Part shown: piece after piece, positions 12,633 through 19,205 of the stretch | How the letters are laid out: each line of letters starts with the position of its first letter | Numbering within the stretch: position 1 is the stretch's first letter | The notes under the pieces: model-generated | Database searches by the model: none | Seen by the model: the letters and a program-made list of their open reading frames with translations, nothing else | What the model was told of the DNA's origin: nothing | Program-made: the position numbers and the translations under genes | Sequence record: OR525702.1 | From: Escherichia phage vB-Eco-KMB23 | DNA: 64,000 nt | Reading direction: 5' to 3' (one strand)

Positions 12633-12953
12633 TTATAGCGTAATCCATTCTCGTACTGTCTGAGTTACTACACGTTCACGGGGCTCGACTAGTTCAACAG
12701 TCGGAACTGCATAATACCAGTCAGAATGGTAAGAACCTGAGCGAGATTCATTTACAGACACATGAACGTTATGTTTTGGACTAAAATAAACACACTGACG
12801 ATATTGGCATTTACCATCTTGCACCCAGTCTTCTATTTCGATAGGTTTAAGATAATCCGAAAAATCGAAATCATAATTTTCTGAAAATGCATCATGGTCT
12901 TCGATGATTTCGCTCAGAACTGCATCAACATCTAATTTATTTTCAATATTCAT
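12633..12953 (-). CDS. Hypothetical protein, 106 aa
   Basis: ORF track. Confidence 0.5.
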   Translation of the reverse strand: MNIENKLDVDAVLSEIIEDHDAFSENYDFDFSDYLKPIEIEDWVQDGKCQYRQCVYFSPKHNVHVSVNESRSGSYHSDWYYAVPTVELVEPRERVVTQTVREWITL

Positions 12954-12963
12954 TTTTCACCAA

Positions 12964-13173
12964 TTAATTTCGCAATTTATTAAGTTCTTCATAATCAATC
13001 CAGGATTCTAGTCCTGATGGCAAATCAGATTCAATTTCCCAAAGAAGCTCTTCAATTTTCTGAAGACGATCTAATTCTTCGGCTGGAATAGTAACCATTG
13101 ACGGAGTTCTTGATACACTAATATCGTAGATCATATTTACCCCAGTTTGACCATGCAATCGCCATATTTCCAT
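12964..13173 (-). CDS. Hypothetical protein, 69 aa
   Basis: ORF track. Confidence 0.4.
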   Translation of the reverse strand: MEIWRLHGQTGVNMIYDISVSRTPSMVTIPAEELDRLQKIEELLWEIESDLPSGLESWIDYEELNKLRN

Positions 13174-13352
13174 TTAGAAATAGACTTTTCACCGTTAGAA
13201 TAATAAACTTCGAGTTTAGCACGATTATTTTTAATTTGAATAACCTTTGCTGTCATCAAAGTTCCATACCCGTAATAAACTGCAACCTCATCACCTACAT
13301 ATACCGCGCTTCCGCGGTAGTCATGGATATAATCAGTTCCTTCGAGCATCAT
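13137..13352 (-). CDS. Hypothetical protein, 71 aa
   Basis: ORF track; 4-nt overlap with nrdC stop. Confidence 0.45.
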   Translation of the reverse strand: MMLEGTDYIHDYRGSAVYVGDEVAVYYGYGTLMTAKVIQIKNNRAKLEVYYSNGEKSISKWKYGDCMVKLG

Positions 13353-13612
13353 TTAAAGTATTCCCGCAATTGGTCAAATCCACCAATATGACTTCCATCA
13401 GGAGCAAATACTTGTGGCATTGTCAAACCAATTTGAGTATCACGACCTAGTTTCGTCAGAAGCTCAGCGATTTTCTCATCATCAAAAACACCTTTTTCCG
13501 GCATAATGTTGATAAATTCAAACGGCTGTTTCTTCACGGTCAAAAGACGTTTTGCATTATCACAATACACACATTTGTGGATGTTGCTATCATAACCATA
13601 TACTTTAAACAT
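13349..13612 (-). CDS. nrdC: Thioredoxin/glutaredoxin
   Basis: 87 aa; MFKVYGYDSNIHKCVYCDNAKRLL with CVYC active site, matching T4 thioredoxin. Confidence 0.9.
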   Translation of the reverse strand: MFKVYGYDSNIHKCVYCDNAKRLLTVKKQPFEFINIMPEKGVFDDEKIAELLTKLGRDTQIGLTMPQVFAPDGSHIGGFDQLREYFK

Positions 13613-13613
13613 A

Positions 13614-13856
13614 TTATTCCTTAATTCCTAGTACTTGTTTAAAAGTCTCGTCGTAATCAAGACTTTGGCCCGTTTGTTCTTTATGTTTGTATATAATATC
13701 ACTTACTTCTGATAGCATATTTTTATATGAACGAGTTAAAGCAGATTTAAGCACGCTATATCTATCAGGAAATTTACCGTGTTCATTATAATACGCTATT
13801 GCTAATTCACGGACTGCCTTTTCAGCAGTCTCCATATATTCTTTACGCTTTGTCAT
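13614..13856 (-). CDS. Hypothetical protein (start adjusted to [13 protein letters not shown])
   Basis: ORF track gives 13614..13991, but that extension overlaps the upstream gene by 134 nt; an internal Met gives a tidy junction. Confidence 0.45.
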
Positions 13857-13857
13857 T

Positions 13858-14247
13858 TTAATCCAAAATATTATTAGGCATTGGTTGAACACTCGCAAGT
13901 TCTTTAAAGAACTCAGTAGAGTCAGGTAATTTAACCATTTCAGGAGCATGCTTACTAAATTTATGTTTGCAATGACGGCATTTATATTCAAGTTCCGGTT
14001 TACGCCAGTTAATCAATTGAACTTGTTCAGTACCGCATTCAGGACAATTAGGAACGTTTTTAGAAGCCCTTTCGCGACGTTCAACCATAACCATAATAGC
14101 ATCCCAGGCTGGAGGTTTAAAATCTAAATCGTCGCAGCCGTGAATCTTTCCACGCATTTCCATATCATCTTCCTCACCAGCCATAATAATTTTAATTAAA
14201 CTGGAATTACTTGAAGCTGCAATGTCTTCTAATAAACGCTTTTTCAT
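13858..14247 (-). CDS. Hypothetical zinc-ribbon protein, 129 aa
   Basis: CPECG...CRHCKHKF Cys4 motif. Confidence 0.5.
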
Positions 14248-15173
14248 TTCAATACCTCAATAGCATTACGTAAACCATTTGCTTTTGCATTAAGAGCTTT
14301 TAACAATTTGGTGTGTTCTGCAATTTGGGCTTCAACTTCAATCAAACGGGCATTGAGATATTCACGTTCTTCACTCAGATTATCAACCTTTTCTACTTTA
14401 GGCTCTTTTACAACTGTCTTATATGTATTAGGGTTCTTCAGTTTAATTAGAATGCGTGAACTGTATAACATTGAACCATTATCTTCGGTTTCGTCATACA
14501 TTTCCACTACGTCCATAATTTTTAACATCATGCGGAGTTTATAAGACAACGAACGAATAGTTTTGTTGTGCTTATTAATTTCTTTAGCTGTCATGGTGCC
14601 AAGATTACGTGAGTAATAATAAGGAACCTGGATATTAATTAATACTGATGAACCACCTGGCTTATGTGTTACTTCATCAGCAATAACCCAGTCCTTAACA
14701 TGAACTGTATTTGTACGGTCATCGCCTGCAGTAAACAGCTTGCGAGCATGCTTAAAAAGCATATTCACTTGGTCATTGAATTGACAAGCAAATTTATCAG
14801 CAAATTTAGTTTCAGGAATGGTAGATAACCAATCAGCCAAATGGGTCTTTTTAACATCGTTAACAATAGTAAATTCAACCAAATCAGTTATAGATGTCGC
14901 AGATTTAATGAAGCTCGGCTTCATAAAGTTTTTAATGTTATCACGAGCTACAGTAGAAGATAACATACGAGAACGTTTAAACCATTCAAGCAAATTGCCT
15001 AACGAATGAGAATAAGCGTTTTGAGTATCTTTACAGATATGATTTTCCTGACCAACATATTGAAGGAAATCACGAAGAATATTATTGATTACTGCTCTGT
15101 GCCCGATCTGATAATTACGGTGTTTAGTAATAAGACTGTCAAAATAATCAATATAATGTTTACGAGTTTTCAT
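14244..15173 (-). CDS. Hypothetical protein with C-terminal coiled coil, 309 aa
   Basis: ORF track; C-terminal heptad region [42 protein letters not shown]. Confidence 0.6.
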   Translation of the reverse strand: MKTRKHYIDYFDSLITKHRNYQIGHRAVINNILRDFLQYVGQENHICKDTQNAYSHSLGNLLEWFKRSRMLSSTVARDNIKNFMKPSFIKSATSITDLVEFTIVNDVKKTHLADWLSTIPETKFADKFACQFNDQVNMLFKHARKLFTAGDDRTNTVHVKDWVIADEVTHKPGGSSVLINIQVPYYYSRNLGTMTAKEINKHNKTIRSLSYKLRMMLKIMDVVEMYDETEDNGSMLYSSRILIKLKNPNTYKTVVKEPKVEKVDNLSEEREYLNARLIEVEAQIAEHTKLLKALNAKANGLRNAIEVLK

Positions 15174-15225
15174 GTTCTTCTCACTTGGTTAATGATTTAT
15201 ACTCCGAGCCATCCTTGGCTTTAAA

Positions 15226-16278
15226 TTACTTAATTAACTGTAAAGCTTGTTCTAGACGATCAAGACGATTAACAGATTCTTCCCAAATCCTTTTAGCCTG
15301 CTCATATTCTTTCTGCGCTTTATTAGAAATTTCTAGAACTTCTTTATAAGCTTTTTCTAGTGCAATAACTTCTGGACGAATTTCTACCGGTTCAGGTGAA
15401 TCATCAAGATTATCCATTAGTTCCTCAAGGGTAGTTTCTTCTTTAGGAGTATTCACAATTTCATCACATTTTTGTTGATAAATTTCTTTATCAGTCGGTG
15501 AGTACGCGCACTTTAATTCACGAAGGCTAATTACAATTTTATATCCTTCCCAACCGCATATATTCTTAAAAGGATATGTATGAATATTTTCTACTGTTTC
15601 CATACAAAGTAATGCAGTCTCTAACTGACGAGTTATAGTGCTAGCAATTGAGAAAAATTTATTAATATTCTTTTGGCTAGCGTTTGGTGTAAAAAATCCA
15701 TAATTCACAAAAATAGCTACTTTATTTTCATCAAGCTCATATTCTTTTACGATAATCATATCAGAAGCCAAAGGATGAATTTGACGATAATCGCCATAAC
15801 ATAATTTAGAAGCTGATTTTAGAATTTGTCCTTTGAAAAGTTTGAAATTACTAATCCAACGACGAGTAAAAATATTCTCAGGGTCTTCTTTATTATTAAG
15901 ATGATAAGAATTAACATCACCGAACCAATTATATCCTACTACATCTTTAGTTCGTTTAATTTCTTTCCCAAAATTACCAAGAATATCCCGATTAACCAAA
16001 TATGAAAGAAGACGAGACTCTTTAAAGGTTTTCTTGATAACATCTTTATCTACACGGCTAGAAATTTTACGAATTTCATGAATAAATTTAGTAGAAGAAA
16101 CAATACTTGCATCAACACTATTGAGCCATTGATTGATAATAGAAAGAACGATATTTTGACCAAACATCGGTATAGCTTTATCATCAATAACGCTATTGAA
16201 TGATTTGATATATTCGTTACGAGTCATAATAATCTCCTCAGTAGAAAGTAAGAACATTATACCACATCCTTGTGGCAA
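15226..16278 (-). CDS. Hypothetical protein with C-terminal coiled coil (probable start at MTRNEYIKSF, about 16227)
   Basis: ORF track; C-terminal heptad region KAYKEVLEISNKAQKEYEQAKRIWEESVNRLDRLEQALQLIK. Confidence 0.6.
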   Translation of the reverse strand: MPQGCGIMFLLSTEEIIMTRNEYIKSFNSVIDDKAIPMFGQNIVLSIINQWLNSVDASIVSSTKFIHEIRKISSRVDKDVIKKTFKESRLLSYLVNRDILGNFGKEIKRTKDVVGYNWFGDVNSYHLNNKEDPENIFTRRWISNFKLFKGQILKSASKLCYGDYRQIHPLASDMIIVKEYELDENKVAIFVNYGFFTPNASQKNINKFFSIASTITRQLETALLCMETVENIHTYPFKNICGWEGYKIVISLRELKCAYSPTDKEIYQQKCDEIVNTPKEETTLEELMDNLDDSPEPVEIRPEVIALEKAYKEVLEISNKAQKEYEQAKRIWEESVNRLDRLEQALQLIK

Positions 16279-16284
16279 TGTAAA

Positions 16285-17310
16285 CTAGTTCAGTGCATTT
16301 AGTGCATTGTTCAGTTTAGAACGTTGCTTCGTAAGATTTTTGACTTTTTCTTGAGCTTTTTCCAACATCTTTTCAGCTTCTAGCACTTCATTAGTTGCTT
16401 TAACGAGTTCATCATCTACTGCCTTGATAGACTTCTCAATCGCATCTGCATGCCATTTTTCAACAGGTTTAAGACTCGGATTTTCAATAGGAAGAAAATT
16501 CACTTTATTAAATTTCCATGCATCTTTATTACCTGAACTATACATCCAAAATTTAGGATCGTTTGATAAGTAATTGGATAAATTTAAATTTAAGTTATCT
16601 TGTACTTCCTGCTTTTTCTCTTGCGGGACTTCGTCCTTTCTCAAAAAATCATATTTAAATGAAACAACCATATCAAGTTCATATGTTGTTGTGTCTAATT
16701 TAAATCGTTCAAAACGAGGTAAAATCTTAGATTGAACAGCAGCAACAACATCCATATACTTAAATGCTTCTGTCAACTGTGATTTAAGGCATTCACAAAT
16801 TGAAAGAGAATTTTTAGTATTAGGCTTAAAGCTAATTCGTGCAGTTCTATTATTTTCCTTTAATGGTCTTACTTCCATCTGAAGAGTATAACCATCAAAT
16901 TTAAGATTCTTTAAGTTAATATCAGAACCTTTTAATCGACTAGCAGTAGACAAAATTTGCTTTAATTGTCTACGGAATAGAGCAATAAATCTCCATTCAA
17001 TACGATAATGATTTGGATTGAAAAATCCAGATGATAAATCGACCTTACTTTGACCAACGCCTTGAACAAATAGAGGATTTTTATAATCAATAGTTTTACA
17101 GAAATCGGTGAGTTGCTCACGAGCAGTCATTTGTGTAATATACCCAGCTTTACTAAAATGACGTAACCATTCACTGCTATTCATATATTTAAAGTGAATA
17201 TCACGATTAACTTTATCAAGGTCTAAATTATTTTGGCACAAAAATGTCATAACATCACGAGTATAGCTGGCATTACGAACCATATCTTCAATTTGAGAAC
17301 GAGTTTTCAT
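16285..17310 (-). CDS. Hypothetical protein with C-terminal coiled coil, 341 aa
   Basis: ORF track; C-terminal heptad region VKATNEVLEAEKMLEKAQEKVKNLTKQRSKLNNALNALN. Confidence 0.6.
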   Translation of the reverse strand: MKTRSQIEDMVRNASYTRDVMTFLCQNNLDLDKVNRDIHFKYMNSSEWLRHFSKAGYITQMTAREQLTDFCKTIDYKNPLFVQGVGQSKVDLSSGFFNPNHYRIEWRFIALFRRQLKQILSTASRLKGSDINLKNLKFDGYTLQMEVRPLKENNRTARISFKPNTKNSLSICECLKSQLTEAFKYMDVVAAVQSKILPRFERFKLDTTTYELDMVVSFKYDFLRKDEVPQEKKQEVQDNLNLNLSNYLSNDPKFWMYSSGNKDAWKFNKVNFLPIENPSLKPVEKWHADAIEKSIKAVDDELVKATNEVLEAEKMLEKAQEKVKNLTKQRSKLNNALNALN

Positions 17311-17318
17311 GGTGTTCC

Positions 17319-18221
17319 TTAAGATTTAAGTAAATCAACAATTTTAATTAATTTTTCACGCTCAGATTTAGCTTTACTACTCAATCCAGATAGTCTGAAA
17401 ATTTCATCGTCATACTGTTGAATAGAAATATTCAGCTCTTCAATTTGCTTATTAAAATAATCAATTTGTTCAGAATGTTTTTCGTTACTACGAACTGGTA
17501 CAGGTTTTGTAGGTAATTTAGATGAACTGGATTCATCCGGGCGATAAATTAAAATACAACTTGAACCAATCGGGCATTTTGCACCAGACGAATATTCTAA
17601 TGTTCCGGCTTCTTTTAAAACTTCAAAAGCTAAACAGAGATGATGCCCCATATTGACATAATCTGTAGAGTGAGCTCTGACGTAATAATCATCTCCACGA
17701 GTGCTAAATTTAAAGCATTTAAGGTCTTCTGTATTATTAGTTTTAAAAATCATTTGTTTATCTAGACCTTTAGCCAATCGAGCACCTAATGCTAATAATC
17801 GTCGTTGATTTTCCCACAAATCCGCAATCATTTGATCGAATGACAATTTCGGCATTAGTCGACCGTAAAGATCATAGCCTTTATTATAATTACGAAGAAT
17901 TTCACTCGCATTAATACGAGACAACGCTCCAATTTTATTAAGGGCTTTCATAATACGATTAGATAAACTCATTCCAGACTCGTTTGTTCGCTGTAAATGT
18001 TTTTCTAATCCAAATCCAATATCAACTTTAAACTTATCTAAAATTTCTGCATGAACATCTCTGTCAATAACATTCAAATCCAAAGTTGGGTTAAATCTAT
18101 GAAAAAATTTATCTGGCTCTCCACGACGAAGTACAGTCCATTCATTTAATTTTTTATTAACTAAAGATTTAATTACTGCATTGACATTATTAATTACTAC
18201 TGACATATTTTTCTCACTCAA
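17319..18221 (-). CDS. Hypothetical protein with C-terminal coiled coil, 300 aa
   Basis: ORF track; C-terminal heptad region NKQIEELNISIQQYDDEIFRLSGLSSKAKSEREKLIKIVDLLKS. Confidence 0.6.
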   Translation of the reverse strand: MSEKNMSVVINNVNAVIKSLVNKKLNEWTVLRRGEPDKFFHRFNPTLDLNVIDRDVHAEILDKFKVDIGFGLEKHLQRTNESGMSLSNRIMKALNKIGALSRINASEILRNYNKGYDLYGRLMPKLSFDQMIADLWENQRRLLALGARLAKGLDKQMIFKTNNTEDLKCFKFSTRGDDYYVRAHSTDYVNMGHHLCLAFEVLKEAGTLEYSSGAKCPIGSSCILIYRPDESSSSKLPTKPVPVRSNEKHSEQIDYFNKQIEELNISIQQYDDEIFRLSGLSSKAKSEREKLIKIVDLLKS

Positions 18222-18622
18222 TTTTCAATTTTACTAAATACACAGAATATGATGGAAAAGACTATATAAGCACCGCACACAGATTGAACTAATACCATTC
18301 CAAAGAACCAAACAATATTATCAAACAGTGTCTGTTTTACGTCGAAAGGACGTAAACTTACAGTAATATTATCACCTTTTTCTATTGAAGAATACATCTC
18401 TGGGGAAATATATTCACTAAATCTATAACCGTCTTTAAGTTCATATACGGCAATAAACGATAAACTAGACCCTTTTCCTTGTGTTCCTGTAATGGTATTA
18501 ACTACAGTAACATCATAATCTTTATAATGCATATAATCATTAATTGCGTAATAACCGTATGCAACTACTACACATAAACAACATATCAATAAATTCAATC
18601 TTTTAATTATCAACTGTTTCAT
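18218..18622 (-). CDS. Membrane protein, 134 aa
   Basis: N- and C-terminal hydrophobic helices (LICCLCVVVAYGYYAI; FGMVLVQSVCGAYIVFSIIFCVF). Confidence 0.55.
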   Translation of the reverse strand: MKQLIIKRLNLLICCLCVVVAYGYYAINDYMHYKDYDVTVVNTITGTQGKGSSLSFIAVYELKDGYRFSEYISPEMYSSIEKGDNITVSLRPFDVKQTLFDNIVWFFGMVLVQSVCGAYIVFSIIFCVFSKIEN

Positions 18623-18677
18623 AATAATCTCAATTAAAAGGGCTTAGAACCATTATACCATCCTTGGTATAAAGCGG

Positions 18678-19205
18678 TTATGCGAGTACCGTCTTTAACC
18701 GTTCTTCAAACTTCCGAAGAGTATTTTGGCGTTCAGCTCTTTGCTTTTTGTAAGTTTCAATACGCTCTGAAATGAGAGCGTATCGTTCATTTACTGATTC
18801 TTTCATAAAATCAGGAATTTCACGAGAAGCTTTAATCTCATCAAATTTATCAATAACAGCTTGCTCTTCAGCAATTAAGTTATCATACATTAAAATATCT
18901 TTCTTGATGAACTCAATATCTTCTTGAGTTACACGAGATAATTTAGATGCTTTATCCTTTTTGTACTGTTCGTTAGTATCACGAGACCAGTGTAATGTAC
19001 GATTTTTATTCGTATTTTTGTAAATTTCTACAATACCAATTTCATCAATAATAACGATCCAATTCCAACGGGATTTGTAAATTTGTCCTCCATCAACAGT
19101 GATTTCACCTCCGATTGAGATGTCATTAAAGAACTTACTCTGTGCTTCAGATTTAAATTTACCATCGTTGTAATTTACTAAGTTGAAAATATCTTTAGCG
19201 TTCAT
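18678..19205 (-). CDS. Hypothetical protein (start adjusted to MNAKDIFNLV)
   Basis: ORF-track start 19265 lies inside an early promoter; the internal ATG at 19203-19205 is preceded by a GGAGG RBS. Confidence 0.55.
   Translation of the reverse strand: MNAKDIFNLVNYNDGKFKSEAQSKFFNDISIGGEITVDGGQIYKSRWNWIVIIDEIGIVEIYKNTNKNRTLHWSRDTNEQYKKDKASKLSRVTQEDIEFIKKDILMYDNLIAEEQAVIDKFDEIKASREIPDFMKESVNERYALISERIETYKKQRAERQNTLRKFEERLKTVLA

Follow-up and report, generated by a model that had tools for sequence, protein, structure and literature searches.

We analyzed a 64,000-nucleotide stretch of Escherichia phage vB-Eco-KMB23 (sequence record OR525702.1), called the window below, and within it an array of four consecutive minus-strand genes, the orthologs of T4 nrdC.3, nrdC.4, nrdC.5, and nrdC.6. 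The window is that of a Tequatrovirus: its DNA at positions 14000 to 18700 is 98% identical to that of the Shigella phages ESh31 and SHBML-50-1, with 740 phage records matching this region. From nrdC through nrdC.11 the genes follow the T4 order, as seen against both T4 (NC_000866) and SHBML-50-1, and the four open reading frames (ORFs) are placed as in T4, between nrdC.2 and nrdC.7. A first-pass annotation, made by a model from the letters of the DNA, had described four consecutive ORFs of 300 to 350 amino acids (aa) and suggested comparing them with the nrdC.x genes of T4. That comparison gave the following assignments.

14244-15173, minus strand: nrdC.3 ortholog, 309 aa; PHROG 1435, E = 8e-117; 61% identity to T4 NrdC.3
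15226-16227, minus strand: nrdC.4 ortholog, 333 aa; PHROG 1435, E = 3.5e-168; 95% identity to T4 NrdC.4
16285-17310, minus strand: nrdC.5 ortholog, 341 aa; Pfam DUF7235, PHROG 2351; 94% identity to T4 NrdC.5
17319-18206, minus strand: nrdC.6 ortholog, 295 aa; PHROG 2257, E = 1e-152, and PF26899; 97% identity to T4 NrdC.6

The window nrdC.3 protein is also 76% identical to its homolog in Mosigvirus LF82-1. The nrdC.5 protein scores 408 bits against DUF7235, for which the gathering cutoff is 30, and is thus a member of that family; nrdC.3, nrdC.4, and nrdC.6 gave no match to DUF7235 above threshold and are remote homologs rather than members of the Pfam family. The limits originally drawn for nrdC.4 and nrdC.6 had been over-extended to TTG starts. 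The true start of nrdC.4 is the ATG at 16227, the TTG listed at 16278 being an artefact of mechanical extension. For nrdC.6 the start codon is the ATG at 18206 rather than the TTG at 18221, and the annotations of related phages agree with the ATG.

By BLASTP, nrdC.3 and nrdC.4 are 25% identical over 231 aa (E = 4e-8), and PHROGs places both in a single family, 1435; pairwise BLAST found no similarity of nrdC.5 or nrdC.6 to the other members. Family alignments for profile comparison were assembled from genomes of Dhakavirus, Gaprivervirus, and Mosigvirus, together with homologs found in metagenomes. With hhalign, the nrdC.3 and nrdC.4 families matched at 98% probability (E = 1.7e-13), and nrdC.4 matched nrdC.5 at 91% (E = 1e-6), collinearly over 235 columns. 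Direct pairs involving nrdC.6 were weak (P = 0.004 to 0.04), with a mutually consistent register and with scores above all column-shuffled controls. Shallow alignments left nrdC.6 unlinked, and the link required a merged profile that included Jiaodavirus sequences. The bridge is a Klebsiella phage protein, found in Roth34 and as a 43%-identical ortholog in Mineola, whose gene lies directly upstream of an NrdC.2-like gene, that is, in the position of nrdC.3. With a Roth34/Mineola profile, the match to nrdC.3/4 was 96.7% (E = 4e-10) and that to nrdC.5 was 82% (E = 1e-5), and the Pfam DUF7235 model itself matches the Mineola protein with an E value of 0.005. Against the nrdC.6 family, the merged nrdC.3/nrdC.4/Jiaodavirus/nrdC.5 profile then gave 94.8% (E = 5.5e-8) over 249 columns; it scored 61.0, and the highest score among 80 shuffles was 19.4.

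To guard against inflation of these scores by a coiled coil, the hhalign comparisons were repeated with the tails removed from both sides. The nrdC.6 body (residues 29 to 201) still matched the merged family at 91% (E = 1.1e-6), with a score of 49.5 and a maximum of 19.3 in 60 column shuffles, and for the nrdC.5 body against that of nrdC.3/4/Jiaodavirus the probability was 93% (E = 3e-7). Collinear similarity between body profiles, independent of the coil, was thus found for NrdC.3, NrdC.4, NrdC.5, and NrdC.6. The bodies are collinear from their first residues, and three motifs are common to all families: the start motif M(K)TRxEYIxxF, [FL]xKxGxLSxxxAxExLxNFxK, and LLxxxA(S/R)(K/R)LxxGxD. Two of the proteins begin with MKTR, as had been remarked, because the start motif is family-wide; a third starts with the variant MTRNEY. 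Coil-only profiles behaved differently from the bodies, matching from paralog to paralog weakly, in inconsistent register, and no better than they matched the unrelated coil of nrdC.8. The sole tail feature common to the paralogs is a terminal LxxA[LI]xxL[KN], a pattern that was written post hoc and is not taken as evidence of significance. The family signal thus comes from the bodies rather than the tails. The four genes read as full-length tandem paralogs, and the profile comparisons indicate that they are one family of fast-diverging genes that arose as tandem copies of a single ancestral early gene. The first-pass annotation had called the N-terminal domains unrelated looking, a description that does not survive comparison of the coil-less bodies, and had proposed a domain-shuffled family using a common C-terminal module. 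Its suggestion of profile comparison among the four led to shared ancestry; one family with a heptad-type end is retained from that proposal, and the shuffling is not, the bodies being homologous and the coils no closer to one another than to the nrdC.8 coil.

Each of the four proteins closes with 45 to 60 residues of heptad-patterned helix, where about 40 residues of heptad repeat had been described from the letters alone. The tails lie on the minus strand as follows.

14247-14378, minus strand: nrdC.3 C-terminal heptad helix, about residues 266 to 309, ending LRNAIEVLK; recognized by hydrophobic spacing, heptad rank 2 of 63
15229-15378, minus strand: nrdC.4 C-terminal heptad helix, about residues 284 to 333, ending LEQALQLIK; heptad rank 4 of 63
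16288-16467, minus strand: nrdC.5 C-terminal coiled-coil helix, residues 282 to 341, about 7 heptads, ending LNNALNALN; predicted by AlphaFold2, heptad rank 1 of 63
17322-17474, minus strand: nrdC.6 C-terminal helical hairpin, residues 245 to 271 and 277 to 294, ending LIKIVDLLKS; helices predicted by AlphaFold2

The ranks come from a home-made scale of a/d versus surface positions, applied in 28-residue segments to the C-terminal 42 residues of every window ORF of 120 aa or longer, 63 in all. On this ad hoc scale nrdC.5 ranked 1st, nrdC.3 2nd, nrdC.4 4th, and nrdC.6 7th; the chance that four specified genes would all fall in the top 7 of 63 is C(7,4)/C(63,4) = 6e-5, a figure to be read with the score being uncalibrated and the background of 63 including the four genes themselves. 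In the nrdC.5 family alignment, conserved hydrophobic residues recur at 4-3-4-3 spacing over about 7 heptads. The nrdC.3 and nrdC.4 alignments show 3-4 spacing that is less regular than that of nrdC.5, and in the nrdC.6 alignment the 3-4 spacing falls into two segments split by SGLSS. AlphaFold2 predicted a single helix at residues 282 to 340 of nrdC.5, with a predicted local distance difference test (pLDDT) score of 56 to 77, and a hairpin broken at SGLSS for the nrdC.6 tail (pLDDT 72 to 88), so that a helical hairpin fits nrdC.6 better than one continuous coil. Taken as 3-4 spacing in a helix free of proline and glycine over at least 4 heptads, a coiled coil is clean in nrdC.5, acceptable in nrdC.3 and nrdC.4, and interrupted in nrdC.6. 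The coiled-coil prediction that had been called for thus came out in favor of heptad ends, with the proviso that nrdC.6 may carry a hairpin rather than one coil. Assorted coiled-coil Pfam families match the tail region of many family members, all below threshold.

The last 45 aa are the best-conserved part in all four ortholog sets. Pairwise identity among orthologs, tail versus body, is 76 versus 66% for nrdC.3, 71 versus 36% for nrdC.4, 36 versus 22% for nrdC.5, and 61 versus 39% for nrdC.6. Two database entries have aberrant ends. The nrdC.6 of T4 NC_000866 (L003:9067-9894) carries a shortened annotation whose C terminus is out of frame and without the coil, NrdC.6 being full length (295 to 296 aa) in other T4 records, and the RB69 NrdC.5 entry (P0184) has an aberrant C terminus; both are probably sequencing or annotation frameshifts. 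A heptad-like C-terminal helix, scoring 3rd of 63, was also seen in the nrdC.8 ortholog (18678-19205, minus strand, 175 aa). It was considered as a fifth family member and rejected, hhalign giving P = 0.016 in the coil region only.

Each protein is predicted to begin with a basic N-terminal domain that is mostly helical, followed by a small beta-beta-alpha-beta-beta domain, a flexible linker of variable length, and the heptad helix of 45 to 60 residues. The AlphaFold2 model of nrdC.6 (pLDDT 76.8; predicted template modeling score, 0.64) has a helical domain at residues 3 to 146, a beta-beta-alpha-beta-beta unit at 165 to 221, a disordered linker at 226 to 240, and the helical tail. The nrdC.5 model, made with a 17-sequence alignment, shows the same order of secondary-structure elements at low confidence, and it was kept out of the fold search because its pLDDT was 43.9. 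All four heads are basic, with isoelectric points (pI) of 9.2 to 9.6 and net charges of +8 to +13, and the tails are neutral to acidic. Linkers vary in length among orthologs; the one preceding the nrdC.4 tail is acidic (pI 4.1) and contains proline. A Foldseek search of BFVD with the nrdC.6 model gave full-length matches beyond the orthologs (probability 1.0; E = 2e-6 to 7e-4; template modeling scores of 0.4 to 0.49) to uncharacterized Straboviridae proteins of 304 to 346 aa that are 10 to 16% identical, from phages of Enterobacter, Pectobacterium, Acinetobacter, Yersinia, Klebsiella, and Serratia. Searches of the PDB, by sequence with all four proteins and by fold, returned nothing resembling the family, and NCBIfam and PADLOC scans of the four gave sub-threshold noise only.

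Copy number differs among the T4-like genera. There are four copies in Tequatrovirus, three in Dhakavirus and Gaprivervirus (without nrdC.3), three in Mosigvirus (without nrdC.4), one in Jiaodavirus, and two in Acinetobacter phage Acj61; the family is absent beside nrdC in one Krischvirus and one Pseudotevenvirus. In Acj61, the two Foldseek matches are encoded side by side between nrdC and nrdC.10, both coil ended, and one of the phage's proteins, Acj61p121, matched the merged profile with P = 2.5e-4. The family occupies very little sequence space: an exhaustive HMMER search of 1.84 billion proteins with the nrdC.3 plus nrdC.4 profile yielded only 10 representatives and no bridge to nrdC.5 or nrdC.6. 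Orthologs are kept across genera down to 25 to 50% identity with conserved motifs and tails, and intact ORFs occur in 553 to 741 phage records per gene.

The array lies in an accessory, fluid, and non-essential locus. Tequatrovirus nrdC.3 comes in two allele classes that are about 60% identical, and the nrdC.3 of the window is a mosaic: its first approximately 80 residues are 85 to 95% identical to T4, and its body shows 30 to 50% identity to T4 and 80 to 95% to the Mosigvirus LF82-1 homolog. In-frame chimeras of paralogs also occur. Manna_094 of Salmonella phage Manna (L006:5215-6252) joins NrdC.6 residues 1 to 262 to NrdC.4 residues 251 to 333 at a shared QQxxDEI, protein P0056 fuses NrdC.5 145 to 273 to NrdC.3 129 to 309, and gp220 of Shigella phage Sf25 (P0058) carries an internal duplication of NrdC.6 176 to 258. 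The rare chimeras are deletion products with junctions at short shared sequence such as QQxxDEI, and not module acquisitions. A deletion remnant is found in Escherichia phage Pinarejo (L007:6001-6141), where the last 47 codons of nrdC.6, 98% identical and unannotated, are left between nrdC.7 and nrdC.5.

Published work gives one member of the array a phenotype. In T4, nrdC.5 is an early gene and non-essential; when expressed, it lets a deletion mutant plate again on cells with the SIR2 defense gene dsr1 (Srikant et al. 2022, PMC9391042), and the sensor domain of Dsr1 recognizes the phage major capsid protein (PMC13581612). The neighbors of the array are a gp49.2 ortholog (12633-12953, minus strand) and nrdC, within 12633-13612 (minus strand), and an nrdC.1 ortholog inside 13614-13991. 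Because gp49.2 inhibits OLD (PMC13096335) and nrdC.1 inhibits Septu (bioRxiv 10.1101/2025.11.20.689424), the orthologs adjoining the array place it in a recognized anti-defense island. All four T4 genes, nrdC.3, nrdC.4, nrdC.5, and nrdC.6, are non-essential on K-12 (supplement, bioRxiv 10.1101/2025.11.20.689424). An anti-defense role is secure only for the NrdC.5 ortholog; given that NrdC.5 counters Dsr1, its paralogs NrdC.3, NrdC.4, and NrdC.6 are good anti-immunity candidates. We therefore favor, at a probability of roughly 55%, a reading in which the four genes encode a battery of oligomeric anti-defense (host-range) proteins, the role of NrdC.3, NrdC.4, and NrdC.6 being inferred. Under this reading, one early gene would have been duplicated in tandem, with the copies diverging fast. 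Each variable basic head would presumably bind a particular host immune protein, and the conserved tail would make a homo-oligomer, which could raise avidity for oligomeric immune sensors and stop paralogs from mixing. NrdC.5 would in this way neutralize the SIR2 (NADase-type) protein Dsr1, putatively by direct binding.

Several points weigh against this reading. The anti-defense activity of NrdC.3, NrdC.4, and NrdC.6 would be extrapolated from one paralog at 15 to 25% identity, and the relation of NrdC.5 to Dsr1 is known for the T4 protein, of which the window's allele is a 94% identical version with direct binding putative. Oligomerization through the tail is putative, the models being of monomers, and the nrdC.6 tail is predicted to fold back on itself in a hairpin. 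For nrdC.5 the model is poor (pLDDT 44), a common fold being supported structurally for nrdC.6 versus distant homologs only, and the Mineola match from Foldseek was equated with Mineola_080 by phage name and length (326 aa) only. Basic heads (pI 9.2 to 9.6) are also compatible with nucleic acid binding. In one HIDEN-SEQ comparison, none of the four genes affected fitness in the hosts that it compared. A more far-reaching version is tentative, and we would not expect it to hold as a whole: the NrdC.3-6 superfamily might be hitherto unrecognized, Straboviridae-wide modular immune antagonists with a new fold, whose heads would block different Dsr1/Avs-type sensors, whose tails would build multivalent oligomers, and which would be retargeted by duplication, allele exchange, and tail-swapping chimeras.

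Other explanations account for parts of the same evidence. If the tail were a docking device for a shared partner, the paralogs would form mixed oligomers or would all assemble on one phage or host coiled-coil protein that gathers the variable heads. This would suit a tail that is the most conserved part within each ortholog set, surface positions included, and a terminal motif common to all paralogs and to the Klebsiella and Acinetobacter phage homologs; the T4 internal proteins, with a short targeting sequence on variable bodies, offer an analogy. However, the partner is hypothetical, and beyond the last 9 residues the tails of paralogs in the same genome differ like unrelated coils, as expected if tails avoid each other or bind different things, and we regard docking as rather unlikely. 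We also think it improbable, though worth keeping in view, that these are oligomeric nucleic acid-binding or regulatory early proteins, with a basic head and a dimerizing coil, that act on host or phage DNA or RNA, the rescue by NrdC.5 from Dsr1 then being indirect. The charge of the four heads set beside neutral or acidic tails is what such proteins would have, as are conserved Arg/Lys residues in the A(S/R)(K/R)L motif. Residues 30 to 86 of nrdC.3 weakly match the N-terminal SAM-like domain of tyrosine recombinases (NCBIfam, E = 0.0016; Pfam, E = 0.07), a sub-threshold lead that was dropped because the match is seen in 1 of 27 family members only.

The shuffling model with which the first-pass annotation began, unrelated N-terminal domains joined to one C-terminal oligomerization or docking module, is largely refuted and now very improbable. 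It would explain why pairwise BLAST sees no similarity of nrdC.5 or nrdC.6 to the others, why LxxA[LI]xxL[KN] ends all four, and why natural in-frame tail swaps occur, as in phage Manna (NrdC.6 head, NrdC.4 tail) and P0056. However, the coil-less bodies are homologous at 93% and 91% probability, far above shuffles, the N-terminal motif is common to all, coil-only profiles resemble one another no more than they resemble the nrdC.8 coil, and the chimeras are deletion junctions at QQxxDEI rather than gains of a module. That the array is decaying duplicated DNA, most copies of which have no current function, is hardly credible. All four genes are indeed non-essential on K-12, and some genomes contain deletions, one remnant, and frameshifted annotations, but the ORFs are intact in the hundreds of phage records counted above and the orthologs span genera with motifs and tails conserved. 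In addition, nrdC.4 has its own putative promoter and a GAGGAG ribosome-binding site 7 nucleotides ahead of its ATG at 16227.

16256-16284, minus strand: putative T4-early-type promoter ahead of nrdC.4, GTTTACA-17 nucleotides-TGgTATAAT; 11 of 12 consensus positions with the TG, assigned by consensus match only

The reading of the array as an anti-defense battery can be set beside known systems. T4 internal proteins IPI, IPII, and IPIII form a related accessory cluster in a variable locus, with a short conserved terminal element and fast-evolving bodies, and some of them defeat host defenses. They are small, are packaged, and carry an N-terminal capsid-targeting sequence. The likeness to nrdC.3-6, a cluster of accessory proteins in a variable locus with a conserved terminal element and diverging bodies, is one of analogy only; unlike the internal proteins, nrdC.3-6 are expressed early, encode 300 to 340 aa, carry the conserved element as a C-terminal coil, and have no sequence relation to them. 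A host-range role is described for IPIII (PMC9391042). The phage protein DSAD1 inhibits the defense-associated sirtuin DSR2 by binding its sensor part directly (PMC10973363, PMC11087589), which is by analogy the mechanism that NrdC.5 may use. DSAD1 differs in its target, DSR2 rather than Dsr1, and comes from another phage group; the likeness is one of mechanism, with no similarity of sequence or fold claimed.

Part of this is already known, since the genes are T4 ORFs and one of them, nrdC.5, has a published phenotype. The closest known system is T4 NrdC.5 itself, of which 16285-17310 is the ortholog; nrdC.3, nrdC.4, and nrdC.6 are by comparison remote paralogs with the same head-linker-coil layout. 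The paper on T4 NrdC.5 (PMC9391042) mentions no mechanism, structure, paralogy, or tail. In the databases the window proteins are full-length, high-scoring members of their own families, PHROG 1435 (NrdC.3 and NrdC.4), PHROG 2351/DUF7235 (NrdC.5), and PHROG 2257/PF26899 (NrdC.6), with PF26897. What the databases list as three separate families with no assigned function is here one superfamily, which also takes in syntenic genes from phages of Klebsiella (Jiaodavirus) and Acinetobacter (Lasallevirus). In the databases and literature returned by our searches, neither the union of the superfamily with its head-linker-coil plan, nor its extension to syntenic genes of distant T4-like phages, nor NrdC.3, NrdC.4, and NrdC.6 as candidate counter-defense proteins is recorded, although an earlier description is possible.

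T4 is the best-studied phage, and about half of its genes are without a known role. If the four genes are one family with an anti-Dsr1 member, three orphan genes can be nominated as specific counter-defense candidates that lend themselves to testing, and the relatives in Klebsiella and Acinetobacter phages would likewise be candidates. For the action of NrdC.5, the layout suggests a structural hypothesis, a variable head on an oligomerizing tail. The host range of T4-like phages matters to phage therapy, and accessory batteries of this kind may set which clinical strains are infected.

The gene bordering nrdC.3 varies among close relatives. This is the nrdC.2 ortholog (13858-14247, minus strand), which encodes 129 aa compared with 104 aa in T4 and matches Pfam Zn_ribbon_8 (E = 1.5e-5), with the CxxC...CxxC signature of a zinc ribbon.

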